A stretch of DNA of 64,000 bases from Patescibacteria group bacterium (GTDB lineage: Bacteria > Patescibacteriota > WWE3 > UBA101185 > UBA10185). A model generated the notes under the pieces. That model did not search any database, was not told the origin of the DNA, and saw only the letters and a program-made list of their open reading frames with translations. Shown in pieces: positions 1 to 47,267 of this stretch. Both the position numbers and the translations under genes were made by a program. The stretch's first letter is position 1; every line of letters starts with the position of its first letter. The stretch covers positions 12,821-76,820 of the forward strand of contig JAFGOI010000008.1 in NCBI GenBank assembly GCA_016926555.1, in the 5' to 3' direction.

Positions 1-418
1 AAACAAACCCATGCGGAGAAACGGGAGATGTTTGACCTGTTGTCAAAGCATACAAACCATTATCATGAATTACAATTGTTATATCGTGATTTCTTCGACA
101 AGCGTGAATAAAATGATTGCCTCCTTCACCTAAACAATCCCCATCACCCGTAAACGCGAAAACATTTAGCTTGTGGTCTGATAACTTTATGCCTGTGGCA
201 ACTGGTATGGGCCTGCCATGCAGCCCTTCAAGAGAGGTAATTTTTGTAAAATTAACTATGTGCCCGTGACATCCTATTCCCGCGGCCAAAGCTGTGTTTG
301 TATTATCCCAGCCCTCTTGAACTGCTGCATTTTTAAACGCCGCCCATAAGGACATATTTCCGCAGCCTGGGCACCAATTTGGAGTGTATGGAGTTGCTAA
401 TTCGCTCAAAGTGGTCAT
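1..418 (-). CDS. 2-oxoacid:ferredoxin oxidoreductase beta subunit (TPP-binding). Partial: the gene starts at 418 and runs off the window edge.
   Basis: Minus-strand translation MTTLSELATPYTPNWCPGCGNMS...GIGCHG...FTGDGD matches the OFOR beta TPP-binding N-terminus. Its ATG overlaps the korA stop (ATGA). Confidence 0.8.
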   Translation of the reverse strand, partial: MTTLSELATPYTPNWCPGCGNMSLWAAFKNAAVQEGWDNTNTALAAGIGCHGHIVNFTKITSLEGLHGRPIPVATGIKLSDHKLNVFAFTGDGDCLGEGGNHFIHACRRNHDITIVIHDNGLYALTTGQTSPVSPHGFV

Positions 419-2151
419 TTTTTACCTCCTAATATACTATCAATTTTTTGCTGTATTTCATGAGTGTAAAACGGTCTTCCGTCATATTTAAGCAGTTTGT
501 CTTTTACCTCAATACCTGTTTTTTCTTTTACTAAACCTAAAAATTGCGCGCTAAAACTCGCTTCAACCCCTAAAACGTGCTTCGACTCCTCAAGCACTTT
601 CTTTATCTGCCCAGTTGGAAACGGATTCATCCAGGTTATATGCAAATAATTAACATTCTCATGCTCTTTTATGGCCTGCAGAATGCTGCCTTTATTGCTT
701 CCCCAAGAAATTATTGTCACATCAGCATCTTTTGATCCATACAGAGTTTGTGGAGGCATATCAGTACTAGCGCATGTCTCCAACTTTTTCATTCTCTTAT
801 TCATTTGGCTATTTCTGTTATCAATTTCCTCGGAAGAATAGCCGTATTCGTTATGTTCGTCAGAATTCGCGATAAAGAAATTACCAACACCCGGAATACT
901 TCGTATGGAAATACCGTCTGCAGATAGTTCGTACCTTTTATAATCTTCTATTTTATCCACTGAAAACTTACCGCGGTCTACAACATACTCTTTTGAATCA
1001 AAAATCGGATAACTCTGATCGTTTTCGCATATGTTTTTATCTATCAGTAAAACAACGGTTGTTTGGTACCTTTCGGCCAAATTAAACGCTGCTAAAGTTA
1101 AATAATAAGCTTCCTGAGGATCTCCCGCGGCAAGAACAATACGCGGGAAATCACCTTGATGCATATGTAAAACCATTCTAAGGTCGCCCTGCTCGCTCCA
1201 AGTGGGAAGACCCGTTCCCGGGCCGCCGCGCATACCCTCAACAATAACGAGCGGAACTTCAGCTATACCTGCAAGACCGTAACCTTCCCCCATTAAACAG
1301 AAACCTCCTCCAGACGTCGCCGTCATAGCTCTCGCACCTGCAAATGATGCGCCGATAGACATGTTTATCGCTGAAATTTCATCTTCCGGTTGTTTGTATA
1401 CATAACCGTATTCTTCTTGATACTTTGCTAACACGTGCAAAATGTTAGAAATCGGAGACATGGGATAAATAGCGGCAAATTGGAGACCCGCTCGGATAGC
1501 TCCCAAAGCAACGGCCTCATTTCCGTTTATAAGTATTCTATCTTTTGTTTCATTTAAACTTTGAACATGTTTTAGTTTATCTGTAAGATCATCTTTATAT
1601 TTATCCAACACAAAACTGTATCCTTTTTCCGCCGCATCCTGGTTTAATTTAATTACGTTTTCGCCTTTATCTTCAAACTCTTCTTTTAATAGGACCTTCA
1701 ACACTTCTATGTCACCACTCTTTAACCCAATAAGCGCCCCTAAAGCAACCGTGTTTATATGCAGTTCAGATCCCCCGCATTCTCTAGCGAGATCTAAAAG
1801 GGGCAGGGGATACTTAGAAACATTTTCCGGCAATTTGGATAGGTCCAGATTTGTTTCGCTGTCGTACAAAACAGATGAGTTTTCTTTATACTCATCCAAA
1901 TGAAAATCAATCGAATCCTGATTAAGCGCAATCAGAAAATCTATTTTATAGCTGGGACCGGTCACTTCATCTAACGAGATATTTATCTGCATAACATTGT
2001 GGCCCCCGCGTATAATTGACGGATATTCTATATAATTAAAAACATTGTACCCGGATCTTTTAGCAAATTTAGCCAGCAAAATCCCCGAGGATTTTATTCC
2101 TTGCCCCGCTTGACCGGCAATTTTTATTGTTAGTACCTCTTGCTTGCTCAT
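415..2151 (-). CDS. 2-oxoacid:ferredoxin oxidoreductase alpha subunit (fused gamma-alpha type, KorA/PorA-like).
   Basis: 578 aa. N-terminus IKIAGQAGQGIKSSGILLAKF is gamma-domain-like, followed by the alpha domain. Operon arrangement with the downstream beta subunit. Ends in TGA. Confidence 0.85.
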   Translation of the reverse strand: MSKQEVLTIKIAGQAGQGIKSSGILLAKFAKRSGYNVFNYIEYPSIIRGGHNVMQINISLDEVTGPSYKIDFLIALNQDSIDFHLDEYKENSSVLYDSETNLDLSKLPENVSKYPLPLLDLARECGGSELHINTVALGALIGLKSGDIEVLKVLLKEEFEDKGENVIKLNQDAAEKGYSFVLDKYKDDLTDKLKHVQSLNETKDRILINGNEAVALGAIRAGLQFAAIYPMSPISNILHVLAKYQEEYGYVYKQPEDEISAINMSIGASFAGARAMTATSGGGFCLMGEGYGLAGIAEVPLVIVEGMRGGPGTGLPTWSEQGDLRMVLHMHQGDFPRIVLAAGDPQEAYYLTLAAFNLAERYQTTVVLLIDKNICENDQSYPIFDSKEYVVDRGKFSVDKIEDYKRYELSADGISIRSIPGVGNFFIANSDEHNEYGYSSEEIDNRNSQMNKRMKKLETCASTDMPPQTLYGSKDADVTIISWGSNKGSILQAIKEHENVNYLHITWMNPFPTGQIKKVLEESKHVLGVEASFSAQFLGLVKEKTGIEVKDKLLKYDGRPFYTHEIQQKIDSILGGKK

Positions 2152-5027: not shown

Positions 5028-5133
5028 AAGTTCAGTCTAATTAAGTTTTTATACTGTGTCAAAGACAAGTACAAAAATGTTTTTTACACCTTTCGCACAC
5101 TTTTATAAATAAGAGAAAATTCTAAGATATAAT

Positions 5134-5478
5134 TTGTATATGAATATAGTATCCGGCATCGATATGGTTTATATTGAAGAATTCGGGGAACAGCTTAAAT
5201 TATCCGAAGATAATTTTGTAAAAAGATGTTTCACGACAAAGGAGCAGAATATAAAGGAAACCAAGACGTTAGCGGGAATATTTGCAGTAAAAGAATCCGT
5301 AATAAAAGCTTATTCTCTGGCACCGGGTAGTTGGTTGAATATAGAGGTTGATAACAGGAACAGCGGAAAACCTTATGTAACAATTAAAAATATAGACGAA
5401 AAGGTCTTATCTCAAGACGTGAGTATATCTCACTCTAAAGATTACGTAATAGCTTCATATACTGCTTTGATAGAATAA
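5134..5478 (+). CDS. acpS: Holo-[acyl-carrier-protein] synthase (4'-phosphopantetheinyl transferase, AcpS type).
   Basis: 114 aa. GIDMVYIEEF...FAVKESVIKA...ISISHSKDYVIA matches the AcpS pattern. Confidence 0.7.
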   Translation: MYMNIVSGIDMVYIEEFGEQLKLSEDNFVKRCFTTKEQNIKETKTLAGIFAVKESVIKAYSLAPGSWLNIEVDNRNSGKPYVTIKNIDEKVLSQDVSISHSKDYVIASYTALIE

Positions 5479-5482
5479 AATA

Positions 5483-7975
5483 ATGTACAAAGATTTTACA
5501 CACTTTCTTAAAGATTTGACGGATCGTTTCGATGACAAAACAGCCCTTTATATAAGACGTATTTTTAAGATAGAAAGAATTACATACAGACAATTACACG
5601 AAAATGTAAAGAAACTCGGAATATTTTTTAAAAATAGCGACGTAAAAGCGGGGGATAGAGTGCTCATATGGGGCCCTAATATACCTGAATGGGTAGTTGC
5701 TCTTTTAGGCTGTTTTTACCATGGAGTAATTGTAGTACCAGTAAATGTACACACATCGCAGGCGACATTCGAAAAATACTTCGCCGAAACGGAGGCCAAG
5801 TTAATTTTCATATCAAAGTCTATCCCCAAACTACCCGAACAATACAAAGAAAAAATCTTTTATCTGGAAGATCTTTTGAACATTATTAGAGATTTAGATG
5901 AACAAGAGAGTTTTGACCAAAATGAAGATGAAGTAATAGAAATAGTATACACATCTGGCACAACGGGAGAACCGAAAGGTCTAATGATTACACATAGAAA
6001 CATTTTTTCAGAACTTGATAGCCTGTGGGATATTGCTCCCAGAGATCCGGATTATAGACTGTTATCACTACTGCCTTTAAGTCATGTTATGGAGCAGGTA
6101 ATAGGTTTAATTCTCCCACTATCTCTCGGCGGAACTATATATTATTTACCAAAAATAAACACTGTGACTATAAGCAAAGCACTTAATAAATATAAAATAT
6201 CTTATCTTGGCGTAGTTCCTCAAATGCTTAGGATTCTTTTAGATTCCATAGAAAACGAGGTTGAAAAACAGGGAATCGAAAAAGAATTTAAGAAAATGTT
6301 GGAAATATCAGAAAGACTACCTTTCTTTTTGAGGAAATACATTTTTAGAAAAGTTCACAGAAAATTTGGCGGCCACTTAAAAATGATGATGTGCGGAAGC
6401 GCCCCTTTGCCGCCAAAACTCGGTCAGACATGGGAAAATATGGGTTTTAAAGTTATTGAGGGATATGGCGCGTCTGAAACTTCCGCTGCCGCAACGTGCA
6501 ATACAGTAAATAAGCGAGTTTTTGGAACAGTAGGAAAACCCATGAGGTGTAACGATGTAAAAATAATAGAAGACGGGGAAGTGGTAATAAAAGGATCTAA
6601 TGTCACTCCAGGTTACTTTAAAAATCCTGAAAAAACTAAAGAATCTTTTACAGAAGATGGCTATTTTAAAACAGGCGATATTGGTTATTTTGATGAAAAC
6701 GGATACTTACGGCTTTCGGGAAGGACAAAATTTAGAATTGTTACACCCGCAGGCGAAAAAGTGTATCCGGAAGATCTAGAAGTCAAACTAAACTCACATG
6801 GCGATATTTGGGATAACTGTGTAATAGGTATACCTGTAGAGGGCGGGGAAGAGGTCTATGCGGTTGTAATAACAAAAGAAGGTGCTAATTTAGATAAAGT
6901 TATTGAAGAAGTAAATAATAATTTAGAAGCGCATCAGAAAATAAGACAATATAGTAAATGGGAGGAAAAGGATTTTCCAAGACTACACACATTAAAAGTT
7001 GATAGAAAAGCCGTAAAAGAGAGAATTTTAGAGAACAAACCCCAAACGCCAGAAAATATCCCGAATAAAAAAGCTGATAACGATAATGAATTGAAAGATA
7101 TCATTTCATTAGTATGTAAAGTAAACCCCGCAGAGATAGGTAAAAATAAGGTACTTACCAAGGATTTTCACCTGGATTCCTTAAGGAGAGTCGCGCTCGT
7201 TTCCTTAATAGAAGAAGAATACGGGGTCATTGTAGAAGAAAGTGATATCACGCAAGATACCACTGTAAGTGATCTAGAAAAACTCATTAAAATTGGCAAA
7301 AAACGTGTAGATTTTACGCTACCGGCAGAGTGGCCTCTTAATCCTTTTTTGTTTAAAATTAGGGATTTTCTAAGAAATTTGATAGTAACACCAATACAAA
7401 ACTATTACATTACCGATTTAAAAGTAGAGGGTATTGAAAACCTTAAAGGCTTAAAACCACCTTTAATAATAGTATTTAACCATATAGGTCACTACGACCA
7501 TGCCCTAATATATAGAATATTGCCAAAAGAACTAAGATTAAAACTCACTGGTTTGGCTGACAAAGAGCTGTATAGAACTAAATTTAAAGCATTTTTACAG
7601 TATTTCTTCGGTGGTGCTTATCCCGTGGATAAATATGGAGGCCCGGTTAGAAAGTCCCTTGAATTGGCTACAGATCTATTAGATAGGGGATTCGTTTTAT
7701 TACTATCACCAGAAGGGGAAATAAGTTATAGCGAAAAAATGCTTGAATTCAAAAAAGGCGTTGGCATGCTGGCGGTTGAAACCGGCGTTCCTGTTTTACC
7801 TATAAGAATAAAGGGTTACCACAAGATTTATAAAAAGAGACACGAATGGCCGTTTTTGCCGCCGGATGGAAGGGGTGAGGTTACTGTTGTTATTGGAAAA
7901 TCACGTACTTTTGAAAAAGGTACTACTTACGATAAATCTACTAAAATCATAAGAGATATACTCGAAGAATTGTAG
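5483..7975 (+). CDS. Tri-domain fusion: acyl-AMP/acyl-CoA ligase (AMP-binding), acyl carrier domain, and 1-acylglycerol-3-phosphate acyltransferase (PlsC-like). Aas-like lysophospholipid acylation enzyme.
   Basis: AMP-binding motif YTSGTTGEPKG in the N-terminal half. Carrier-domain motif DFHLDSL with the serine at 7178-7180. PlsC HX4D motif NHIGHYDH at 7481-7498 and a PEGE motif in the C-terminal part. Confidence 0.8.
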   Translation: MYKDFTHFLKDLTDRFDDKTALYIRRIFKIERITYRQLHENVKKLGIFFKNSDVKAGDRVLIWGPNIPEWVVALLGCFYHGVIVVPVNVHTSQATFEKYFAETEAKLIFISKSIPKLPEQYKEKIFYLEDLLNIIRDLDEQESFDQNEDEVIEIVYTSGTTGEPKGLMITHRNIFSELDSLWDIAPRDPDYRLLSLLPLSHVMEQVIGLILPLSLGGTIYYLPKINTVTISKALNKYKISYLGVVPQMLRILLDSIENEVEKQGIEKEFKKMLEISERLPFFLRKYIFRKVHRKFGGHLKMMMCGSAPLPPKLGQTWENMGFKVIEGYGASETSAAATCNTVNKRVFGTVGKPMRCNDVKIIEDGEVVIKGSNVTPGYFKNPEKTKESFTEDGYFKTGDIGYFDENGYLRLSGRTKFRIVTPAGEKVYPEDLEVKLNSHGDIWDNCVIGIPVEGGEEVYAVVITKEGANLDKVIEEVNNNLEAHQKIRQYSKWEEKDFPRLHTLKVDRKAVKERILENKPQTPENIPNKKADNDNELKDIISLVCKVNPAEIGKNKVLTKDFHLDSLRRVALVSLIEEEYGVIVEESDITQDTTVSDLEKLIKIGKKRVDFTLPAEWPLNPFLFKIRDFLRNLIVTPIQNYYITDLKVEGIENLKGLKPPLIIVFNHIGHYDHALIYRILPKELRLKLTGLADKELYRTKFKAFLQYFFGGAYPVDKYGGPVRKSLELATDLLDRGFVLLLSPEGEISYSEKMLEFKKGVGMLAVETGVPVLPIRIKGYHKIYKKRHEWPFLPPDGRGEVTVVIGKSRTFEKGTTYDKSTKIIRDILEEL

Positions 7976-8015
7976 CATATTGCTTTTATTACAATAAAAT
8001 ATCAGATTATCTGAT

Positions 8016-8044
8016 TTGACTATCGCAGTAACCTATAGTATAAT
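8016..8044 (+). promoter_or_regulatory. Near-consensus sigma70-type promoter (TTGACT-17 bp-TATAAT), preceded by a small palindrome ATCAGAT-T-ATCTGAT at 8001-8015.
   Basis: Read directly: TTGACT at 8016-8021, a 17-nt spacer, then TATAAT at 8039-8044. AGGAGG lies 7 nt before the ATG at 8091. Confidence 0.5.
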
Positions 8045-8090
8045 ATGCCCGTTGACATTTAATATCCACATAACAAAACAGGAGGTAAAA

Positions 8091-8588
8091 ATGACTGCAG
8101 TAATAAGAAGAGGGCTAGTAGGTTTGGGTTTCATTTTTATAGGGGCCTTAATGGGCATGTACTTAGTGCTACAGACGCTGGGGACGTCGTCGTATATCCC
8201 GGTGTCCCAGGGACACCACGGGACACATGACGTCGGTACCGATCCAGCGGCTACGGCCAGGTTTAACCACCTGGTCAATAGCTGGAACGTAGCAAATTTC
8301 AGTAATCCTGAGGATCCAAACAAGATCAACAGGATAGTTTGCTACGTTGTGAAAGAAGGTTCCAAGATAGCCAGGTACGTGGCCTGGCACGGAACCAGAG
8401 TTTCCTCACTGGGCACCCAGTATGGAAACTTAAACTGGTGGCAGCTCGGTGAGGAGGGGTGGGAAGCCTATTCATATGACGACATGAATTTTAGTCGTCT
8501 GGGACTCCCAAAAGATCTTGATCCCCAGCGATTTTCCTGGGAGAACGTTAATTGTGACAGTATGTATCCTCCGGGGGTTTCTCCCTAG
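8091..8588 (+). CDS. Hypothetical signal-anchored or secreted protein (165 aa) with strongly atypical GC content (about 55-60%).
   Basis: Strong Shine-Dalgarno AGGAGG before the ATG at 8091. An N-terminal hydrophobic segment is followed by a soluble domain. GC sampled at 8161-8220 is 60% and at 8341-8400 is 55%, against about 33% in flanking genes. The track ORF starting at 8016 uses TTG inside the promoter and is rejected. Confidence 0.55.
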   Translation: MTAVIRRGLVGLGFIFIGALMGMYLVLQTLGTSSYIPVSQGHHGTHDVGTDPAATARFNHLVNSWNVANFSNPEDPNKINRIVCYVVKEGSKIARYVAWHGTRVSSLGTQYGNLNWWQLGEEGWEAYSYDDMNFSRLGLPKDLDPQRFSWENVNCDSMYPPGVSP

Positions 8589-9876: not shown

Positions 9877-11094
9877 ATGTATACTTTTATTATGCAATTT
9901 CCTGCTGATTTTTTATGGGGAACAGCAACTTCTGCATATCAAACAGAAGGTTACAACACCAATTCTGACTGGTGGTACTGGGAAAAGGGAAAATATCCAA
10001 AGTCAAAAAGAAAAGCGTTCATTGGCGAAACATCAGGTATGGCTTGTGATTCTTACAACAGATATGAAGAGGACTTTAATTTCGCAAAAAATATGAACAA
10101 CAACGCGATTAGGTTTTCTATTGAGTGGGCAAGAATTGAACCAAGAAAAGGTGAGTGGGACCAAACGGAAGTAGAGCACTATAAAAAGGTAATTAAAGCA
10201 GCAAAAGAACGCGGTTTAAAAACATTTGTTACATTACACCACTTTACAAAACCTATCTGGTTTTCAAAATTGGGAGGTTGGCTAAATCCATTCGCGCCTA
10301 AATGGTTCGCAAATTACGCGAAAAAATGCGCGGAGGAATACAGCGACTACATAGATTTTTTTATAACTCTTAACGAACCCCAAGTATATTCGTTGCAAGC
10401 ATATTGGAGAGCTACATGGACACCAAAAATCAAATGTAAATTATTCGCGCTAATATCTCAATTAACTCAAATTAAAGCTCATAAGAAAGCTTACACGGCA
10501 ATAAAATTTGTAGATAACTCAGCAAAGGTTGGTTTGTCTAAACATATAGTCAGATACGAGAGGGTCACAAATGACAGAGGAAAAGCGAGTATATGCACTA
10601 AACTAGTATGTAAAGTACTACATTATTTGACGACAAACTTCTTTTTAGATCCGATAAAAAAACACTTGGATTTCATAGGACTCAATTACTATTTCACTGC
10701 GTGGATGAAAAACTTCAAGGAAAAAAATCCCGAAATGGAATCAAGTGACCTGGGGTGGATACTTTACCCTGAGGGCCTAAAACATATTTTACTAAATCTA
10801 AAAAAATATAACTTGCCAATATACATAACTGAACATGGCCTGGCGGATGCTTGGGATCAAAAAAGACAATGGTATATCAATGAATCACTTAAATTTGTTT
10901 ATGAAGCAATGGAAAGCGGTGTTGATGTAAGAGGTTATTTACATTGGTCACTTATCGACAATTTCGAATGGCACATAGGATTTTGGCCTAAATTCGGATT
11001 AATTGAAATAGACAGAGAGCATAATCTCACAAGAAAACCAAGACCGTCATTCTATATGTACAGTCAAATATGCCGGACTGGAAAAGTAGAATAG
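9877..11094 (+). CDS. Glycoside hydrolase family 1 (beta-glucosidase/beta-galactosidase-like).
   Basis: FLWGTATSAYQTEG at the N-terminus, the TLNEP acid/base region, and the I/YITEHG nucleophile motif (YITEHGLAD). Confidence 0.85.
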   Translation: MYTFIMQFPADFLWGTATSAYQTEGYNTNSDWWYWEKGKYPKSKRKAFIGETSGMACDSYNRYEEDFNFAKNMNNNAIRFSIEWARIEPRKGEWDQTEVEHYKKVIKAAKERGLKTFVTLHHFTKPIWFSKLGGWLNPFAPKWFANYAKKCAEEYSDYIDFFITLNEPQVYSLQAYWRATWTPKIKCKLFALISQLTQIKAHKKAYTAIKFVDNSAKVGLSKHIVRYERVTNDRGKASICTKLVCKVLHYLTTNFFLDPIKKHLDFIGLNYYFTAWMKNFKEKNPEMESSDLGWILYPEGLKHILLNLKKYNLPIYITEHGLADAWDQKRQWYINESLKFVYEAMESGVDVRGYLHWSLIDNFEWHIGFWPKFGLIEIDREHNLTRKPRPSFYMYSQICRTGKVE

Positions 11095-35213: not shown

Positions 35214-35900
35214 ATGAAAGATAAATTGATATATTACTTGACAGGTTGCATTTTTCTTCTCGTAGCCCTCGGTGTTGGGATCAATATCAAACAGCAGTTT
35301 GAAGTAGATTACTCAAAAATCCCAAATAAGGTTGAGGAAAACAGTGGCTTTCAAAGATGGATAACGAACTTGAAAAATAAAGATATAGAAATTGAAGCAG
35401 ACGAATTTAGACTAATTGAAGAAAACGAAATATATAATACAAAATGGATGCAGGTATTTTCTATCGACCAAGATGGAAAAAAAGAAGAGTTTGAGAACAA
35501 CCTGTTAAAACATAGAGATATTAAAAAAGTAATATTTTCGCCCAGTGATAGGGAATACATTGACTATAGATACGAATATAGGGATGGCTACGCGCCAAAC
35601 GAAGTCCATTTCTACGGCCTCAAAGAAGATAAAATTATAGACGCTAGAATTCTTGACTGCTCCACAAGGGCCAATTGCTACTTTGATAGAGCCTATTTTT
35701 TGGACAATAATGTTTTTGTGATATCTGAGATATCCCGAAACATACACAAACACGATGAAACCTCGCCATTTTGCTCCCAAAGCGAAACGTGCACATACAC
35801 TTTCAAGATTCACGTTATAGATCTCATTAATAACTCGAGGTATGTTTACGAATCAAAACCACTTGAACTAATCATGGAAGAAGTAAGACCGGAACTATAA
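35214..35900 (+). CDS. Hypothetical membrane-anchored protein (228 aa).
   Basis: N-terminal transmembrane segment, Cys-containing C-terminal domain. No recognisable motif. Confidence 0.4.
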   Translation: MKDKLIYYLTGCIFLLVALGVGINIKQQFEVDYSKIPNKVEENSGFQRWITNLKNKDIEIEADEFRLIEENEIYNTKWMQVFSIDQDGKKEEFENNLLKHRDIKKVIFSPSDREYIDYRYEYRDGYAPNEVHFYGLKEDKIIDARILDCSTRANCYFDRAYFLDNNVFVISEISRNIHKHDETSPFCSQSETCTYTFKIHVIDLINNSRYVYESKPLELIMEEVRPEL

Positions 35901-36388: not shown

Positions 36389-36844
36389 TTATCTGCTAAT
36401 TTCAATTGTTTCACCTAGTTCAGCTAATAAAGAGTGCACTGTTATTTTTCCATACTGAGTCCTTGATATTTCATATCCGGTTCCGTTGAATGTTTTATCT
36501 TGAGGATCCACAGGGATTAGGGTCAGATACTGCTCATTTTTTAGTAAAACGGACAAATCGACGTACCCGGTACAATCAACTGCATGTTCTTTGCATATTT
36601 CCTTGGGTTCTTGAGTAATAGAAAGCGGCAGATCTCCATTTTGCGCCTGATAACTCTTTACTCCGAGTGCGATCATGTGAATATCAATTCTTCTTCTTGT
36701 ATTCCTGGCCCGAGCTATTTGTCTATAGGGCTTAATCACTGAAACAACAACAACAGCTAAAATACCTAATATAATCACTACAAGTATTATTTCGACAAGT
36801 GTAAATCCCACCTTGGTACCAAATTCCTTTTTACCAAGAAGCAT
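36389..36844 (-). CDS. Type IV pilin / pseudopilin (prepilin-type N-terminal cleavage/methylation domain).
   Basis: KVGFTLVEIILVVIILGILA class III signal (G/FTLVE). Confidence 0.75.
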   Translation of the reverse strand: MLLGKKEFGTKVGFTLVEIILVVIILGILAVVVVSVIKPYRQIARARNTRRRIDIHMIALGVKSYQAQNGDLPLSITQEPKEICKEHAVDCTGYVDLSVLLKNEQYLTLIPVDPQDKTFNGTGYEISRTQYGKITVHSLLAELGETIEISR

Positions 36845-39428: not shown

Positions 39429-40622
39429 TTAAATCCCCTTAATGAATCTACTTCTCAATTCGTAAATCAAGGAAAAGGTCGGCTTATAAACTAATACGGG
39501 ATCCAGCCACACCCTTCCGCCAAAAGTAGCGGGCTCTTTCAGACCTTTATTCCATATCGCTAAATAAAAGCACAAAAATACATATAGAACAGTCATAGAA
39601 ACAAAGTGTTTTTTAAGTTTATTCTTAAAAATAGTTGCACTTCCTAAATATATAAAAGGAGTACCCCATATAAAATGGGTTCTATTTAGCACAGGCGTAA
39701 ACAAATAATAAACAGAAAAAGAAGTTATTATTAGTATCCAGATATTATTAACTTTCTTCTTAAAAAACAAATACAACGGCAAAATTTGCGCTCCCAGCAA
39801 AGCACACATCGTATAGATTTCGTTAAACTCCGCCTGGTAGAAATTAACTCCATAATCCTGGAGATAATAGGTAAAAGTACCAAAAAAGGGCCGGCCCTGA
39901 ATACTCCTACTTCCATGAACAAGCAAAGCACCATTTATATACAGCATAGCGTCTTGTACAGACGTGATAAAGGGTAGAGAAAGAAGTATCGTTATCAAAA
40001 AACCTCCTAAAATAAACTTTTTCAGATCTTTTGTCTTTATTAAAAATATTGAGATTAGTATTATAGGAAATGTTTTTAAAGTGACCGATAACGCGTACAT
40101 CACACCCGATATAAAATCTTTTTTCCCTACAGTAAAAACACTTATCAGCAGAAACAACACGGGCAGCACATCATAATTTGTATACTCGTATTTCATAAAA
40201 AAATACGGATGTATAAACCAGAATAACAAACCAAAAATAATCACAGAGTAGGGAAACTTTTCCTTCTTTAAAATTTTACAAAGCAAAATACCCACAATTA
40301 TATCCGCTATAAGAACGGGAACTTTCCACATATACTTTGTCGGTAAATCAAGATCAAAAATCATATTCACTTTTGTAAAAAAAGTCTGAATGTATAAAAG
40401 AGTAGGCATATAAGAGTATCCATGTTTAAGTTTTTCATCTTCAAACGACTGGACAGTGTATATATAAGGATTCACGCCGCCAAGAAAATTCATAACCGTG
40501 GTTTTAAATGTACTGTGATCACCACCTTCTTGATCAAAAACTAATAGTCTCAAAATTACAGATATCACAAAAATGAACAAGATCACCGCTTTGTAGAATC
40601 TTTCCAAACTTTGCACTTTCAT
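39429..40622 (-). CDS. GT-C fold membrane glycosyltransferase (DUF2029/GT87-like). Paralog of 25189-26286.
   Basis: Polytopic. Shared motifs with 25189-26286. Confidence 0.5.
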   Translation of the reverse strand: MKVQSLERFYKAVILFIFVISVILRLLVFDQEGGDHSTFKTTVMNFLGGVNPYIYTVQSFEDEKLKHGYSYMPTLLYIQTFFTKVNMIFDLDLPTKYMWKVPVLIADIIVGILLCKILKKEKFPYSVIIFGLLFWFIHPYFFMKYEYTNYDVLPVLFLLISVFTVGKKDFISGVMYALSVTLKTFPIILISIFLIKTKDLKKFILGGFLITILLSLPFITSVQDAMLYINGALLVHGSRSIQGRPFFGTFTYYLQDYGVNFYQAEFNEIYTMCALLGAQILPLYLFFKKKVNNIWILIITSFSVYYLFTPVLNRTHFIWGTPFIYLGSATIFKNKLKKHFVSMTVLYVFLCFYLAIWNKGLKEPATFGGRVWLDPVLVYKPTFSLIYELRSRFIKGI

Positions 40623-40717: not shown

Positions 40718-42226
40718 ATGCTATCTAAGCTCAAGATTAAAAAACTGCAATTTACAGATATATTGTTTGTGATTACCCTAATCATCTACGCGTTCTTTGG
40801 GTACAGCAGAATAGGGAAGGCTTCAATAAATAATGACGCCCAATTCTGGTATACAAGAACGCAAAACTTTATTGACGCAGTACAAGAAAAAAGATGGGGA
40901 GAGACTCTTCAAAATCCAAAACCGGGAATCACGGTTCACTGGCTCTCCGGATTAAGTTTGGAAACTTTCTTGAGTTTGTACGAAAAGATATATCACTTTA
41001 GACCGGACATCTATACTTACGATACTTTTCATCTTGTTCACTTTTCAGTTATCGCACCTTTAATAACCGTAAATGTTGTTTTCATCGCGGTTTTTTACTT
41101 CTTGTGCAGTAAGATATTTTCTAAGGAGATTAGTCTTTTAGGTGTAATTCTTTTTAGTATGCAACCATTTTATGTTGGTATATCGAGAAATTTCCACTCC
41201 GATAGTATATTAGCTGCATTTATGACTTTATCCTCCATTATCCTTATTTACTACTTAAACAAAAAACCAATTGTTAAATACGCTATTTTTTCCGGAGTCT
41301 TCGCCGGTCTGGCTCTTTTAAGTAAATCATCCGCTGTTTTTCTGCTGCCATATATTTCTCTACTGCTATTACTGGATTTCGCTTTTAATAGAAGACCGCT
41401 CAAGTTTTATATCTCATCCTTCCTTTTATGGCTGATCACATGCTCAATCACTTTTTTTATCTTACTGCCCGATATGTGGATCGAACCTGCACAAAACTTA
41501 AAGGAAATATTCATTTACGAAGGGTACTTCCTGGCAACAACAGGAAGAGATGGTATTAACAACTTTTTCTACTACATTGAACCTATTTTAAGAGTGACAA
41601 CACCTATATTGTTAATGTGTTTTTTGACAAGCATTCTATATTTCATAGTCAACAGAAAAGAATTTAGACTAAAAAAAGAAACCTCGATTTTCTACATATT
41701 TTGCTATACCTTTTTTTATCTTCTACAAATATCTATCACAAAGCAAAAAATGGATAGGTATTTACTCCCCGTATTTCCCTTTATTGCACTACTAAGCGGT
41801 TACGGGATTATTAATTTTATCGATAAACATTTAAAAACCCACAAATACAATATTTTTCTACTACTTTTCATCGCCAACTTTATATTTATTCTAAGCTACT
41901 ACCCAAATTACTTAATATACCCAAGTCAAAAAGGCAAAGACCAATTTGGATGCTCGTTGTGCAGTGATATAGGTGAATATCTAAACAACAAACCAAACGC
42001 TTCCGATCTCAAAGTTATAAGCCTATCCGACAAAGTGCACAGAATTAAACCATTTGTTAAGGGAAAAGTATATACAATACACGAAATACTACCAGCAGGA
42101 TGGACTGCAGAGTACTTGATAGCTGCAAAAGATGAAACACTCCCAAATGAGTATCAACATTGTATTATAGAAAAAACCATTTCTTTTAAAGGAGTAGAGT
42201 ATTGGGATATTTATAGGTGCAAATAG
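40718..42226 (+). CDS. GT-C fold membrane glycosyltransferase (GT39-like). Paralog of 23537-25033.
   Basis: Polytopic. N-terminal loop similarity to the 23537 protein. Confidence 0.55.
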   Translation: MLSKLKIKKLQFTDILFVITLIIYAFFGYSRIGKASINNDAQFWYTRTQNFIDAVQEKRWGETLQNPKPGITVHWLSGLSLETFLSLYEKIYHFRPDIYTYDTFHLVHFSVIAPLITVNVVFIAVFYFLCSKIFSKEISLLGVILFSMQPFYVGISRNFHSDSILAAFMTLSSIILIYYLNKKPIVKYAIFSGVFAGLALLSKSSAVFLLPYISLLLLLDFAFNRRPLKFYISSFLLWLITCSITFFILLPDMWIEPAQNLKEIFIYEGYFLATTGRDGINNFFYYIEPILRVTTPILLMCFLTSILYFIVNRKEFRLKKETSIFYIFCYTFFYLLQISITKQKMDRYLLPVFPFIALLSGYGIINFIDKHLKTHKYNIFLLLFIANFIFILSYYPNYLIYPSQKGKDQFGCSLCSDIGEYLNNKPNASDLKVISLSDKVHRIKPFVKGKVYTIHEILPAGWTAEYLIAAKDETLPNEYQHCIIEKTISFKGVEYWDIYRCK

Positions 42227-42499
42227 ACAAACCACATCGTAGGAGTAAAAATAGGTAAGTATATCCTATTGCCCCAATTTAAAACGAACACAATTTTATT
42301 TTCAAAGATAAATCAAGGATCGTAAAGACAAAATTAGTCACTTATGATACCAAAACCCTTTATATAGTTGATTGTGAAAAAAACCTCGAGAAAATTTCGC
42401 ACGACGTACCACTAACAAACCAGTTACAGAGAGGATGGCAGGCAGGTCTTCGAAAGGAGTTCATTGAATATGCGCCTAAGGAACTGACCGCCAATAGAT

Positions 42500-42910
42500 T
42501 TGAACAACAAACGAGGTATGTTAAAAAGTGTAGATAAGGACGCTAAAGAGTTATCTTTATCAATAGCAAAGGGGATTTCAAATGAAGATGCAACCCCTTA
42601 CGTAAACCAAGAACTAGAGAATTTAATGATACAGAAAAGTGACTTGGAAGATGAGATTGAAAAAATTGAGGAGAAACTTCAAAAAGTTGAAGTTGATGTC
42701 ATAAGTCTCGACCAATTCTTGAACTTGTCGAAAAATGCTCCTAATACAATCAGAAATGGAGATGCCGTACTAAAAGATGCAATTTGCAGATTTATATTCT
42801 TGAACATTGATATTGGAGTTGACGAAGTGTTGTCATATAAGCTCAAAGAGCCATTTGATACCCTTATAAAACAGCGTAAAAAATCCAATGGTCGGGGTGG
42901 TCGGACTTGA
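42500..42910 (+). pseudogene. Possible C-terminal remnant of a large serine recombinase (coiled-coil plus terminal beta-strand region). The 3' end overlaps tRNA-Pro.
   Basis: Coiled-coil LEDEIEKIEEKLQKVEVDV followed by AICRFIFLNIDIGVDEVLSYKL, which resembles large serine recombinase C-termini. An upstream frame at 42320-42530 gives a Cys-containing fragment. No catalytic domain is present. Confidence 0.3.
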
Positions 42911-42966
42911 ACCGACGACCTCACGGTCCCAAACCGTGCACTCTAATCCAACTGAGCTACACCCCG
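42889..42966 (-). tRNA. tRNA-Pro (anticodon TGG).
   Basis: Reverse complement gives acceptor CGGGGTG/CACCCCG, anticodon loop TTTGGGA, T-loop GGTTCAAGTCC, CCA encoded. Confidence 0.8.
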
Positions 42967-43126
42967 CTAACTAAAATAGATATTAAATCCAAAGAAAGTA
43001 TAACAGAAGCGATTTTATAACAAAATTGACATTAAACCAACAAAATGGTTCCTTTAAAATAGGCATTTCCGCCGGCTTAAGCAAACCCGAAGATATTTGT
43101 TAACTTCTCACACAATGTGCTAGGCT

Positions 43127-43942
43127 ATGTGTGTGACTTCTAAAAACTCGAAGAAATTTTTCCAAAGAGACGGCAAACCTTTAAACAACACCATAGAAAC
43201 AATTAGTATTGTCCCAACATCCGAAATTCACATAAATCAGGCTATCTTTGATGAACTAAACAGTCCGCCAAAACCAAATAATCTGAGAAATCTTCTGAGT
43301 GAGAAGTTTGAGAAATTCGTGGATTCAAAGCCTAAACTGCCACTTCCTAACATCAAATCGTTCTCTCTACTTAAACTGAGCTCCTTTTCAGCAGCATCAC
43401 TTGCTATAGCGATAATTGTACTACTAGTAATACCGCTAAAGATAAAACCGAGGATAGACGCATACTCAATATATTCATCAAAACCGTTAACAATGGATGA
43501 GATGACTTATGACATCTATACGAAGGATTCCCGTTCTCAAAGAATAAATGAGGTGTTCAAAGAATACGGATGCCCGCTGGAGGGGATGGGGGAGACCTTT
43601 GTGCATGAGGCCGACGAAAACGACATTCCGTGGTGGATCGTAGCTGCTATAGCCTTTCAGGAGTCAAGTTGCGGCAAAAACTCGCCAAAAATTGATGGAC
43701 AGGAATCATATAATGCATGGGGATGGGCTGTTTACGGCGAGAGCGTACACTCTTTTGATAACTGGGCAAGAGGCATAGAAACTGTTTCTAAGTACTTATC
43801 TAATAGATTTTACTCTCAGGGCATAACTAATACCTGCGAAATAATGAAAATTTACACGCCTCCATCCAACGGCTCCTGGTGTGAAGGAGTTGAGCACTTC
43901 AAAGAGCTGATAGTTAACTATAAATCTCCCGCTGCAGAATAA
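43127..43942 (+). CDS. Membrane-anchored protein with a glucosaminidase-like (mannosyl-glycoprotein endo-beta-N-acetylglucosaminidase/FlgJ-type) peptidoglycan hydrolase domain. Tentative.
   Basis: C-terminal AIAFQESSCGKN...SYNAWGWAVYG...NWARGIETVSKYL...IYTPPSNGSW resembles the glucosaminidase consensus (ESgwG...NnlFGik...YAtdpnY). One transmembrane helix. Confidence 0.45.
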   Translation: MCVTSKNSKKFFQRDGKPLNNTIETISIVPTSEIHINQAIFDELNSPPKPNNLRNLLSEKFEKFVDSKPKLPLPNIKSFSLLKLSSFSAASLAIAIIVLLVIPLKIKPRIDAYSIYSSKPLTMDEMTYDIYTKDSRSQRINEVFKEYGCPLEGMGETFVHEADENDIPWWIVAAIAFQESSCGKNSPKIDGQESYNAWGWAVYGESVHSFDNWARGIETVSKYLSNRFYSQGITNTCEIMKIYTPPSNGSWCEGVEHFKELIVNYKSPAAE

Positions 43943-43952
43943 CCTGTAGTAT

Positions 43953-44570
43953 TTGCGGCTACACCCAAAAAATGATATAATTTCAATTCATATGCGGATA
44001 AAACTTAGAATTTACAGCTCAATAATTACCCCTGCGGCCATTTTAATGGCTCTGTTTACGTTGCTTAGTTTTAGTTCTTCTAACAGCAAAAACGCTATAA
44101 ATGGCCCGTTATTTTCGGATAAAATCGCGGTTTCAGAGGTAAATAGGGTAGAAGTACTAGAAAACTTCTTTGATAACTACAATTCACCTCTAAGAGATCA
44201 CGCGGACACTTTTGTTGAAGTAGCCGATAAATATGGTATGGACTACACAATACTCCCCGCTATTTCGTGTATGGAATCTACATGCGGAAAATACATGATA
44301 CCGGGCTCTTATAATCCTTTTGGATGGGGTATTCATGGAAATAGCTCCATTGCTTTCAACAGCTTCGATGAGGCAATAGAGACTGTAGGAAAAGGCATGA
44401 GTGACATTTATCTTTCAAAAGGCCTGGATACACCTGACAAAATAGCCCCTGTTTATACACCTCCTAACTCCAATGGATGGCTAAAAGGTGTTAATTTCTT
44501 TATCGAACAAATAGATAAAGAAGAGGTATCTAATCAAGTTAGATTAGCGAGCAATTTAGAATTACACTAA
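43953..44570 (+). CDS. Paralogous membrane-anchored glucosaminidase-like protein.
   Basis: ISCMESTCGKY...SYNPFGWGIHG...AIETVGKGM...VYTPPNSNGW. Same motif set as the upstream gene. Confidence 0.45.
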   Translation: MRLHPKNDIISIHMRIKLRIYSSIITPAAILMALFTLLSFSSSNSKNAINGPLFSDKIAVSEVNRVEVLENFFDNYNSPLRDHADTFVEVADKYGMDYTILPAISCMESTCGKYMIPGSYNPFGWGIHGNSSIAFNSFDEAIETVGKGMSDIYLSKGLDTPDKIAPVYTPPNSNGWLKGVNFFIEQIDKEEVSNQVRLASNLELH

Positions 44571-44691
44571 ATTCGCAGAGAAAATGTTGATACCTTACCA
44601 GGACAAACTTATAAGTATCAAACACAGAAAGGAATTCACTACAATCCTTTCTGCACTGAAAAATACATAGTATAATCGTAACGCTACTCCA

Positions 44692-44776
44692 GGGCGAGTG
44701 GCGGAATTGGTATACGCGCACGGCTTAGAACCGTGTTCCTTGCGGATTGTGGGTTCGAGTCCCACCTCGCCCACCA
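44692..44776 (+). tRNA. tRNA-Leu (anticodon TAG), with a long variable arm.
   Basis: Acceptor GGGCGAG/CTCGCCC, anticodon loop CTTAGAA, T-loop GGTTCGAGTCC, CCA encoded. TATAAT lies about 20 nt upstream. Confidence 0.8.
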
Positions 44777-44923: not shown

Positions 44924-45523
44924 TTACCGGTTATAAGTATAGGAACAATACCATTCCCCTCCAATGCAGTATGCCTCTTTGCCATGATACCCCTGACAAT
45001 GTATCATCTTCTCTCCACCCCTATCTAAACACTCTTGAAAATTATGATCATCCTCATAAATCCTTATACTACACTCCTCTTTGTCATATCTGTCCTTCAA
45101 TTCCAACACAAATACATAAGGACTTACCATACACTCATCAAAATCCTTGGGAAATCCTTTTAAAATATTCTTGTCATTTTGAAAATTAATATTACATATA
45201 ATCCTGTCGTGATCATCAGGACTATAAGAAACAGAAGAGATTTTTACTGTGCCACCATTACGTCTGCATGCGTCCTCATCCATTGTTTCTATGGGTACTT
45301 CTATCCCGCATGATACTGTTGACGTTAAATTAGGCAGTTTATACTTAATATCTAATAAACATTCTTCATAGTTAGTTGGTATCGACACTGATTTATCGAC
45401 AATTTCATTTTCAGTGCCACTTATTTTTATTTGCTCTTTCTGCAACAAAATCGTTATAAGTAAAGCAAATGAAATACCAAACACTGCTATTAATGATTTA
45501 ATCGTTTTTCTAATATCACTCAT
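44924..45523 (-). CDS. Hypothetical Cys-rich membrane-anchored or secreted protein (199 aa).
   Basis: N-terminal transmembrane segment and about 14 Cys in the extracytoplasmic part. Confidence 0.45.
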   Translation of the reverse strand: MSDIRKTIKSLIAVFGISFALLITILLQKEQIKISGTENEIVDKSVSIPTNYEECLLDIKYKLPNLTSTVSCGIEVPIETMDEDACRRNGGTVKISSVSYSPDDHDRIICNINFQNDKNILKGFPKDFDECMVSPYVFVLELKDRYDKEECSIRIYEDDHNFQECLDRGGEKMIHCQGYHGKEAYCIGGEWYCSYTYNR

Positions 45524-45587: not shown

Positions 45588-47267
45588 ATGAAGAAAATAT
45601 TATTATTTACCTTCTTATCAGTTACTATACTTGCTATTTTCAATAAACACAGCTTTGGCTACGAAACTGAGAAAATTGAATTCTACGACAATTTAATTGA
45701 GATAAATAAAAACGGTACTATTAATGTGACCGAAAGAATCACTTACAACTTCGGAAGTAACGAAAAACATGGAATAACAAGAGAAATCCCCCTAATAAAA
45801 ACAAACGATGAGGGCAAGAATTTTATACTAACTATAAATAATGTCGAAGTTGAGAATTATCCAGCTGAAATTACTAAATCTAGAAAACATCTCAGTTTAA
45901 GAATAGGGGATCCGGACAAACTTATTTCAGGAACACACACATACACAATAAACTATCAGGTTGTAGGTGCTCTAACTTATTTTGAGGACCATGACGAACT
46001 ATTCTGGAATACGGTGGGAACCGAATCCGAGGTTCCTGTAACCAGAACAACAACTAAACTGATACTTCCGCATGATATTAAGGATGGAGTAGATTATATC
46101 TGCTACACCGGTGTAAAAGACTCAAAAGAAAGCAACTGTGATATTCAAAGAGTAAATGAAGCAATTTTCTTCAATAGTACAAAACCGCTCGAAGTAAATG
46201 AGACTTTAACGATAGCAGTGAAATTTCCAAAGGGATACGCTGATGTACTGCTGCCAAAAGAGGACAGATTTGATATTTTTATAGCAATAGTAGTTATTGT
46301 CCTATTAACTTTATACGTTCTATGGAACGTAGTAGTTCCTATATTGACTTTCTTAAAATGGCGCAAGGATAGGGTAAACACCAGGAACCACCAGCAAATT
46401 GTTGCAGCATGGTTTGAGCCGCCTGAGCGCGAAGACAGAAAGAAGTTTTCGCCTGCGGAAACGCTTGCTATAATAAGCAAATCAACAAATCACTCCGCTA
46501 TATCAGCAACAATAATTTATCTTGCTCAACAGGGGTTCTTTACAATATCTGTGGACGAAAAGGGCAAGGTAGCTTTCAAGAAAAAAACAGACACCTCCAG
46601 CAGTAAAAAGAACTTAACTCAGTTTGAAAAAGACATACTGAACTCGGTTACCGATAAAGACAAAGATTCTATTGATCTGGAAACACTAAAAAAATCGACT
46701 AAATTCTATAAAGTAATTGCCTCATTCCAAAATAAGGTATTAAACCACCTTTACGAAAACGGATATTTTCAAGACGATCCCAAGAAAATTCAAAATAAGT
46801 ATATGATTCTGTTTGTTTTGGCTATGATTACTATATCTTTGCTCCCAATGTTCACGTTCATACTACTCGGATACAAATCCTTCGCAAAGACCCTTAAAGG
46901 AATACAAAAATACTCGGAGGCGCTTTCTTTGAAGAATTTCCTATCGTCACAAGACGAACAGCTTAATTTTCAGTCCAAAAATCAGATGTTTTTCGAAAAG
47001 CTGCTACCATACGCAACAGCATTCGGTGTCGAAAAAGTCTGGGCTGATAGATTTTCTGATTTGAAATTCACACAATCTGATTGGTGTGAAGGTGATATCC
47101 TAAACGCTACAACATATTCCACGCTAAGCAGAACTATAGACAGCGGCGTGACATCGGCTAAAACATACGGAAGCAGCGGAAAAAGCCGCTCAGGGTTCTC
47201 AAGCGGCTTCTCATCCGGAGGTTCTTCCGGCGGGGGAGGCGGCGGAGGAAGTGTCGGAAGCTGGTAA
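45588..47267 (+). CDS. DUF2207-family membrane protein.
   Basis: Signal peptide, a central transmembrane pair, and the characteristic Gly/Ser-rich C-terminus SGFSSGFSSGGSSGGGGGGGS. Confidence 0.6.
   Translation: MKKILLFTFLSVTILAIFNKHSFGYETEKIEFYDNLIEINKNGTINVTERITYNFGSNEKHGITREIPLIKTNDEGKNFILTINNVEVENYPAEITKSRKHLSLRIGDPDKLISGTHTYTINYQVVGALTYFEDHDELFWNTVGTESEVPVTRTTTKLILPHDIKDGVDYICYTGVKDSKESNCDIQRVNEAIFFNSTKPLEVNETLTIAVKFPKGYADVLLPKEDRFDIFIAIVVIVLLTLYVLWNVVVPILTFLKWRKDRVNTRNHQQIVAAWFEPPEREDRKKFSPAETLAIISKSTNHSAISATIIYLAQQGFFTISVDEKGKVAFKKKTDTSSSKKNLTQFEKDILNSVTDKDKDSIDLETLKKSTKFYKVIASFQNKVLNHLYENGYFQDDPKKIQNKYMILFVLAMITISLLPMFTFILLGYKSFAKTLKGIQKYSEALSLKNFLSSQDEQLNFQSKNQMFFEKLLPYATAFGVEKVWADRFSDLKFTQSDWCEGDILNATTYSTLSRTIDSGVTSAKTYGSSGKSRSGFSSGFSSGGSSGGGGGGGSVGSW

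Follow-up and report, generated by a model that had tools for sequence, protein, structure and literature searches.

The locus between tRNA-Pro and tRNA-Leu

We studied a locus of a Patescibacteria group bacterium at which the end of a recombinase gene lies inside a tRNA gene, next to two membrane-anchored hydrolase genes. The sequence analysed, hereafter the window, is a 64,000-nucleotide stretch of contig JAFGOI010000008.1 (assembly GCA_016926555.1, positions 12,821 to 76,820), whose genes have their relatives mostly in candidate division WWE3. A tRNA-Pro(UGG) gene on the minus strand (42889–42966) is complete, with its CCA encoded (ARAGORN; Rfam RF00005, 65.8 bits). A 136-aa open reading frame (ORF) on the plus strand (42500–42910) runs into this tRNA gene and terminates there; its homology to large serine recombinases (LSRs) spans 42503–42907, and its TGA stop codon occupies 42908–42910. 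Downstream, on the plus strand, are two paralogous genes, p1 (43127–43942, 271 aa) and p2 (43953–44570, 205 aa), followed by a tRNA-Leu(UAG) gene (44692–44776, plus strand; ARAGORN and Rfam). The ORFs under study correspond to the NCBI proteins JXA34_02725 (the recombinase fragment, referred to below as the stump) and JXA34_02735. Upstream, a non-coding spacer of 273 bp (42227–42499) separates the stump from a PMT_2 glycosyltransferase gene. A sequence-only reading of this stretch had taken the segment between the two tRNA genes for a decayed integrative element or prophage remnant, the lysis-like genes of which had been retained.

The stump is the C-terminal end of a large serine recombinase gene

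A word-indexed protein search with the 136-aa ORF found the self match alone, and one with the C-terminal alignment found just 18 short fragments; as searches of this type missed the homologs, an exhaustive search of representatives was needed. With phmmer, 182 protein matches were obtained at E≤1e-3, including 67 at E≤1e-10, the best E-value against non-self proteins being 1.7e-24. In all long matches the stump aligned with the extreme C-terminus: for example, it corresponds to residues 396–530 of the 530-aa homolog P0136. The full-length LSRs are 510–566 aa long, and those inspected with Pfam (P0136, P0162, P0166, P0182, P0196 and P0268) have a Resolvase domain, usually together with Recombinase and Zn_ribbon_recom domains. 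An LSR profile HMM of 524 positions, built from 28 full-length members, matched the window at 42503–42907 with an E-value of 1.5e-34, corresponding to profile positions 390–524. The likeness of the ORF tail to LSR C-termini that the sequence-only reading had pointed out therefore reflects real homology.

The remainder of the gene was not found. Profile positions 1–389 had no match in any frame of 41800–43130 (best other E-value, 0.63), the tblastn matches of 149 homologs against the window were confined to 42497–42940, and the spacer 42227–42499 showed no recombinase homology by tblastn or six-frame HMM searches and no Rfam family. The part upstream of the tail, previously described as degraded, thus carries no LSR signal left of 42503 in any frame; since nothing there is recognisable as LSR, the rest of the gene appears to have been deleted rather than eroded, and the spacer is probably the deletion junction. 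What is left consists of a coiled coil and a conserved C-terminal block (KD.ICR.IFLN...SY.LKEPF..L.K). Searches of the stump against Pfam, PHROGs, NCBIfam and PDB sequences returned coiled-coil noise only. The Resolvase (PF00239), Recombinase (PF07508) and zinc-ribbon (PF13408) domains are all absent from the window copy according to Pfam, tblastn and the LSR HMM, so that the profile checks suggested with the sequence-only reading found the LSR domains in the full-length homologs and neither Recombinase nor Zn_ribbon_recom in the ORF itself. Lacking the catalytic serine domain as well as the recombinase and zinc-ribbon domains, the stump cannot recombine DNA. It has none of the features of a functional LSR and shows the collinear C-terminal homology of an LSR gene fragment. 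By homology, the stump truly derives from the C-terminal end of an LSR gene.

Recombinase ORFs of this clade end inside tRNA genes

As had been read from the sequence, the ORF ends inside the 3′ end of the minus-strand tRNA-Pro gene: ARAGORN, Rfam and inspection of the sequence agree on an overlap of 22 nt (42889–42910). Read in antisense, the final codons of the stump, GGT CGG GGT GGT CGG ACT TGA (GRGGRT*), give the encoded CCA, the acceptor 3′ strand, the T-stem and the T-loop TTCAA. An overlap of 20–22 nt between a recombinase ORF and the 3′ end of a convergent tRNA gene was found at five loci, the window and four others, involving four tRNA species. In the four other loci the tRNA gene is on the minus strand as well: the ORF ends at 8510 in tRNA-Pro(GGG) 8489–8564 (L051, region 8001–8564), at 239 in tRNA-Leu(UAG) 218–302 (L053, region 3–302), at 8321 in tRNA-Leu(CAG) 8300–8386 (L054, region 6725–8386) and at 8393 in tRNA-Pro(GGG) 8374–8446 (L055, region 7049–8446).

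The protein sequences carry the same signature. The length of the tail fits the overlap geometry in 65 of the 149 homologs, the segment after the EPF motif counting exactly 17 residues in 49 of them and 29 residues in 16. Homolog tails finish as ...LKEPFxTLLK-x8-GRGxRT, and many read on as ...RTRTxDLxVPNRA(R/L)(YQLSYAP), which is the 3′ half of a tRNA in antisense. The motif of the tail varies with the tRNA acceptor stem: GRG.RT goes with Pro-UGG, GRDDRT with Pro-GGG and GADERT with Leu. The stop codon is the antisense of the TTCAA T-loop, the frame reading through when the T-loop is TTCGA. Over its last 17 residues, P0166 shares 94% identity with the tRNA-Pro gene of L058 translated in antisense. 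Judging from these alignments, the tRNA-embedded 3′ end of the ORF is, beyond chance, a property of the whole Patescibacteria LSR clade.

A separate observation concerns L054, where two tRNA-Leu genes, tRNA-Leu(CAG) at 8300–8386 (minus strand) and tRNA-Leu(UAG) at 10286–10370 (plus strand), stand 2 kb apart beside a nearly intact recombinase gene. The two are in inverted orientation and have identical 31-nt 3′ ends and 24-nt 5′ ends.

Intact and decayed recombinase genes at tRNA-Pro in relatives

LSR sequences were found beside tRNA-Pro in L008, in L023 and, apparently, on the contig that encodes P0003 (JGI 3300072015), the closest relative of p1 with 58% identity, and were absent at the other tRNA-Pro(UGG) loci, which constitutes a presence/absence polymorphism. 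On the P0003 contig, the gene of a 559-aa Resolvase-domain protein, on the strand of p1, stops 167 bp short of the p1 ortholog. Upstream of it are phage-like ORFs that have a faint small-terminase-like match; the downstream neighbours are those of the window, namely p2, DUF2207, trigger factor and ClpP. In L008, a 390-aa recombinase remnant (5186–6358, minus strand) abuts tRNA-Pro (5121–5197, plus strand). In L023, recombinase remnants covering profile positions 37–413 (1017–2210) are present just 3′ of tRNA-Pro (351–427, plus strand), and a direct repeat of the tRNA 3′ end, matching at 17 of 19 nt, is found 8 kb away (8422–8440), directly before conserved genes. The interval 351–8440 of L023 is therefore probably an integrated element of 8 kb with attL and attR.

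Most of the recombinase genes are decayed: of nine copies with DNA context, seven show truncation, internal deletion or a frameshift, and only those of L057 (9183–10862) and of the P0003 contig are intact. The copies of L052 (7783–8339) and L055 (7049–8384) have internal deletions and keep ∼70–210 N-terminal and ∼130–180 C-terminal residues, the deletion in L052 fusing profile position 74 to position 394, and L054 has a single frameshift near position 413. A recurrent site-specific breakpoint within the recombinase gene was considered and rejected: the breakpoints vary by locus (profile positions 139, 160, 343/354, 390, 394 and 413), and because they differ the decay is generic rather than site-specific. 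No free phage or element copies were detected in two IMG/VR scans, and tblastn of the stump against GenBank phages gave no match.

The 136-aa ORF might instead be a functional stand-alone protein, a domesticated coiled-coil/C-terminal module that could, for example, modulate incoming recombinases of the same clade. Its frame is uninterrupted and every invariant residue of the family is retained; P0122, a 130-aa ORF of another genome, shares its start position, and many short C-terminal-only ORFs are found among the matches. However, P0122 sits in a visibly decayed gene: close by on its upstream side are N-terminal Resolvase pieces, frameshifts and an internal deletion. The breakpoints also differ between loci. 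Promoter-like sites directly upstream of the stump are not above chance either (4 versus 8.0 expected from shuffles; the same scan found no terminator-like sites). We consider a stand-alone function very improbable.

p1 and p2 are related to GH73 glycosidases

The description of p1 and p2 as paralogous membrane-anchored proteins was borne out: the two share 32% identity over 181 residues (BLASTP E-value, 4e-26), and each has a single hydrophobic anchor, at residues ∼79–101 of p1 and ∼20–43 of p2 (signal-anchor). p1 comprises a predicted cytoplasmic N-terminal segment, the transmembrane helix and a putative catalytic domain (residues ∼130–265) with E179 and Y243, both of which are invariant across 45 sequences including p2; in the GH73-like domain of p2, the Glu of the catalytic motif is found in CMESTCGK. 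When compared with the PDB, the family profile matched the GH73 domain of the Clostridioides difficile endolysin Ecd09610 (8yxk) with an E-value of 1e-6, the Glu of QESSCGK being aligned with that of HETGNG and the Tyr of YTP with that of KYAP. The AlphaFold model has a mean pLDDT of 74.9, its C-terminal domain being mostly >90. The predicted fold is the lysozyme-like one of GH73, and both the general-acid Glu in an E-(S/T)-x-x-G motif and the downstream Tyr are present. E179 and Y243 occupy positions that we take, from established knowledge of GH73, to be those of the catalytic residues. With the Pfam glucosaminidase profile PF01832, nine of the 45 family members reach E<0.01 (best 2.6e-5). 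The glucosaminidase-like nature proposed for the C-terminal domains is thus upheld at the level of the fold, and p1 and p2 are predicted to be GH73-like membrane-anchored peptidoglycan glycosidases.

The cytoplasmic segment of p1 (residues 1–78, 43127–43360) has a conserved FFxKNGKxL motif near residue 12, with a nearly invariant F12; the segment is predicted with low confidence.

The hydrolase pair belongs to the conserved chromosome

More than 250 p1 homologs were collected, some on contigs of 0.48–0.90 Mb. The p1-p2 tandem is present in 34 of 48 distinct loci, and in all 33 informative ones, that is, tandem loci having enough downstream sequence, a tRNA-Leu(UAG) gene is located within 2.5 kb downstream, on the same strand in 32. 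The tRNA-Val(GAC), trigger factor and ClpP genes then follow in conserved synteny. The arrangement extends to Roizmanbacteria and Levybacteria (L041 and L042), in which the tandem pair is again followed by tRNA-Leu(UAG). On the 5′ side, the window has a GT87 glycosyltransferase gene (39429–40622, minus strand) and the PMT_2 glycosyltransferase gene (40718–42226, plus strand), both assigned by Pfam and both native neighbours of the pair: an ortholog of the former in L059 and one of the latter in L058 stand immediately before the pair and are oriented as in the window. A tblastn search of p1 against 50,697 phage records gave no match.

These data bear on the proposal that the whole segment from tRNA-Pro to tRNA-Leu is an element or prophage remnant and that the glucosaminidase-like genes are its retained lysis genes. 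Such a view could draw on the best fold and profile matches, which include the phage endolysin domain 8yxk and phrog_25820, annotated ‘endolysin’ (E-value, 2e-3), and on the two tRNA genes and the recombinase fragment that flank the segment. However, the pair accompanies tRNA-Leu(UAG) in every informative relative, including those from other Patescibacteria classes, the flanking core synteny is kept, the recombinase gene enters the tRNA from the opposite side, which places the element on the left, and each protein has an N-terminal membrane anchor, which is typical of resident autolysins. The pair has neither the phage location nor the patchy distribution of an endolysin or prophage cassette. 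Because of the 33/33 conservation, the core synteny and the lack of a match in phages, the pair is not retained prophage lysis cargo, and we regard this proposal as extremely improbable. The sequence-only reading had held that conservation of the segment with its tRNA genes in all relatives would speak against it; such conservation, with tRNA-Leu, was found, and it speaks against the hydrolase half of the proposal. As far as comparative sequence analysis goes, the hydrolase pair is part of the conserved WWE3/Microgenomates chromosome and was never cargo of the element.

The only relative in which the tRNA-Leu(UAG) gene 3′ of the pair is on the minus strand is L025 (11401–11483), another local tRNA inversion.

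The tRNA-Pro gene is displaced and inverted

In 20 distinct relatives, a plus-strand tRNA-Pro(UGG) gene immediately follows the ortholog of a conserved gene that encodes 228 aa in the window (35214–35900, plus strand); the tRNA gene was never found on the minus strand. The 228-aa gene marks the ancestral position of tRNA-Pro, as deduced from tblastn synteny and the tRNA positions. In the window this position is empty, and tRNA-Pro, together with the stump, is found inverted and 7 kb off, 160 bp before p1. The displaced gene looks intact and is near-identical to the tRNA-Pro genes of the 20 relatives. The simplest reading is that tRNA-Pro had already moved in a common ancestor and that the element integrated and decayed later; relocation or replacement of tRNA-Pro mediated by the element itself is possible.

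Under a first alternative, the stump and tRNA-Pro would be the right end of a surviving island of ∼35.9–42.97 kb (with PspC, TetR, GT87, PMT_2 and other genes) that was inverted as a block together with the tRNA. Indeed, tRNA-Pro directly follows the 228-aa gene on the plus strand in relatives, 7 kb of mostly lineage-specific genes intervene in the window, and inversion of the block would yield the layout observed beside the pair, with an LSR gene running into a minus-strand tRNA. However, in L058 and L059, which have no stump, PMT_2 (plus strand) and GT87 (minus strand) orthologs directly precede the pair and are oriented as in the window. Since the orientations of GT87 and PMT_2 are conserved in relatives, a block inversion of 35.9–43.0 kb was rejected as the cause. 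There are also no mobile-element genes and no compositional shift in 35.9–42.2 kb, and the predicted ends of such an island have no att-like repeats, whether inverted or direct, which makes this alternative quite improbable.

A second alternative is that the element brought or moved the tRNA-Pro copy at 42889–42966, by capture or replacement, the ancestral copy behind the 228-aa gene having later disappeared. Only in the window was tRNA-Pro found at this place and on this strand, accompanied by the stump; the layout is apparently shared by the closest relative, whose recombinase is intact, and a weak resemblance to the 5′ half of tRNA-Pro (20 of 28 nt) is found near the ancestral site, at 36416–36443 on the plus strand. 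This resemblance is unproven as a relic of the ancestral gene: it is not statistically significant, 5 of 300 shuffles and 11 of 252 other 1-kb windows scoring as high. Moreover, the tRNA-Pro of the window hardly differs from the native one in relatives, the recombinase abuts a tRNA in its native position in L008 and L023, and no free element sequence with a complete tRNA in attP was found. On balance we hold capture or replacement to be unlikely, with a chance that is small and still appreciable.

The interval between tRNA-Pro and the hydrolase genes was also considered as a pure hotspot for mobile elements, a view that has to be tempered because the first ORFs 3′ of tRNA-Pro in ten relatives include TrpRS and NAD kinase besides an M78 peptidase. 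This interval ranges from 0.5 to 9.6 kb across relatives, some of which have housekeeping genes within it. L058 has a reverse transcriptase gene (RVT_1, 382 aa, 755–2038) directly 3′ of tRNA-Pro(UGG), and the first ORF after tRNA-Pro in L027 contains an M78/IrrE peptidase domain.

Probable loss of an element integrated at tRNA-Pro

Taken together, the explanation that we favour with good confidence is that an LSR element integrated at tRNA-Pro was lost by deletion and left the stump behind, and that the hydrolase pair consists of core genes. The tRNA-Pro(UGG) gene would once have been the integration site of a mobile element or prophage, the LSR gene of which ran convergently into the tRNA gene and ended inside its 3′ end. 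The LSR gene enters the tRNA gene from its left side, so the element was situated on that side of tRNA-Pro. A deletion would then have removed everything left of about codon 390 of the recombinase gene, so that a stump of 135 codons (42503–42910) stayed on the tRNA. The stump most likely persists because it is young and overlaps a tRNA gene that the cell cannot lose. The homology of the stump, the geometry of its overlap and the intact and decayed copies at the same tRNA in relatives are direct observations; from there, we infer integration at tRNA-Pro through an attP that carries a replacement tRNA 3′ end, and loss by deletion. The hydrolase pair would go back to an ancient tandem duplication of a gene for a membrane-anchored GH73-type peptidoglycan glycosidase and presumably acts in cell-wall remodelling or division, with its catalytic domain outside the membrane and with Glu179 (p1) or Glu108 (p2) as general acid. 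The idea of a decayed integrative element is thus kept as regards the recombinase remnant at tRNA-Pro, which is real, and abandoned as regards the tRNA-boxed segment, which is not element cargo.

Several points weigh against this explanation. (i) No second copy of the 25-nt 3′ end of tRNA-Pro was found in the 64-kb window with up to 3 mismatches, and blastn-short of the tRNA 3′ end returned only chance matches of 9–13 nt or matches to other tRNAs; in the absence of a displaced copy, the boundary of the element cannot be demonstrated in the window. (ii) No phage or element genes remain upstream of the stump in the window. (iii) The only relative that apparently shares the layout, the P0003 contig, is known from its genes alone. 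(iv) The frame of the stump is uninterrupted over 136 codons and all invariant residues of the family are kept, which leaves room for a residual function. (v) The displacement of tRNA-Pro requires an additional, unexplained rearrangement. (vi) As for the hydrolases, the GH73 assignment is one of remote homology and predicted fold, the PF01832 scores of p1 (20.8 bits) and p2 (17.6 bits, E-value 6.6e-3) being below the gathering cutoff of 30.2.

A broader proposal would go further: the stump may mark an undescribed clade of Patescibacteria LSRs that specifically targets tRNA 3′ ends, those of Pro-UGG, Pro-GGG, Leu-UAG and Leu-CAG at least. The attP would then supply a substitute for the tRNA 3′ end, in which the last 6–7 codons of the integrase and its stop codon are also encoded, and in the lineage of the window such an element may also have relocated or replaced the single tRNA-Pro(UGG) gene, which was thereby shifted by 7 kb and inverted. 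We find this proposal plausible and lean slightly against it. No description of tRNA-targeting serine integrases in Patescibacteria was found in the literature searched, the coverage of which was incomplete, so that novelty is unproven. In itself the locus is ordinary, a pseudogene stump next to conserved housekeeping genes; only the tRNA-embedded geometry at the level of the clade and the displacement of tRNA-Pro are mildly unusual.

Comparison with known systems

Like large serine recombinases of the phiC31, Bxb1 and A118/LI type, the full-length homologs of the stump have Resolvase, Recombinase and Zn_ribbon_recom domains followed by a coiled-coil-rich C-terminus, whereas the window copy is devoid of all three defining domains; genes of the clade further differ in ending inside tRNA 3′ ends. 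The closest solved structure by sequence, 3g13, matches the catalytic domain only (E-value, 7e-7). Characterised serine integrases usually target sites inside protein-coding genes. Targeting of tRNA genes is attributed to tyrosine integrases in the literature consulted (PMC4383910, PMC8092301, PMC4701971).

The arrangement resembles tRNA islands of the Islander type, in which the integrase gene directly adjoins an intact tRNA gene and runs towards its 3′ end, as in the window, L051, L053, L054 and L055. The displaced tRNA 3′ fragment typical of such islands is present in L023 (the 17/19-nt repeat) and absent in the window, as is the cargo. Unlike in Islander-type islands, the recombinase is a serine and not a tyrosine enzyme, and the stop codon of the ORF lies within the tRNA T-loop in antisense. 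Decayed integrase stumps beside tRNA genes are common. A precedent for a serine-integrase gene that overlaps its own att site at the end of an element is offered by the streptococcal integrative and conjugative elements inserted at rumA, in which the att site is inside the serine integrase gene (PMC4701971); in contrast to the present case, their target is the protein-coding gene rumA rather than a tRNA gene, and the host belongs to another phylum.

With regard to the hydrolases, the GH73 N-acetylglucosaminidases suited for comparison are S. aureus AtlE and SagB, S. pneumoniae LytB, FlgJ and the Ecd09610 domain 8yxk. p1 and p2 differ from GH73 (PF01832) in (i) having diverged below the Pfam gathering score, (ii) having invariant Cys, Trp and Pro positions of their own family (C182, W251 and TPP) and (iii) being tandem paralogs tied to tRNA-Leu(UAG).

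Other features of the window

No anomaly in GC content or skew was found across the region. Downstream of tRNA-Leu, a 199-aa ORF on the minus strand (44924–45523) has an N-terminal hydrophobic segment and many cysteines; it had no match in Pfam, PHROGs or NCBIfam and no tblastn match among the loci of relatives. It is followed by a gene for a DUF2207 membrane protein (45588–47267, plus strand) with a long Gly/Ser-rich C-terminal tail (…SGFSSGFSSGGSSGGGGGGGS…), the position of which is shared with the P0003 contig.

Implications

Two corrections of the annotation follow from these results: JXA34_02725 should be annotated as a recombinase pseudogene fragment, and the hydrolase pair as conserved membrane-anchored GH73-like cell-wall enzymes of WWE3/Microgenomates. 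If confirmed experimentally, intact members of the recombinase clade such as P0268 (encoded in L057) and P0136 would be serine integrases whose attB sites in tRNA genes are short, highly conserved and naturally ubiquitous, and such integrases could serve as genetic tools for uncultivated or newly cultivated bacteria of the candidate phyla radiation, while the stumps would be convenient markers of past integration events. The more modest point is that decayed copies of a serine-integrase clade with tRNA 3′ ends as its attachment sites are numerous in the reduced genomes of Patescibacteria.

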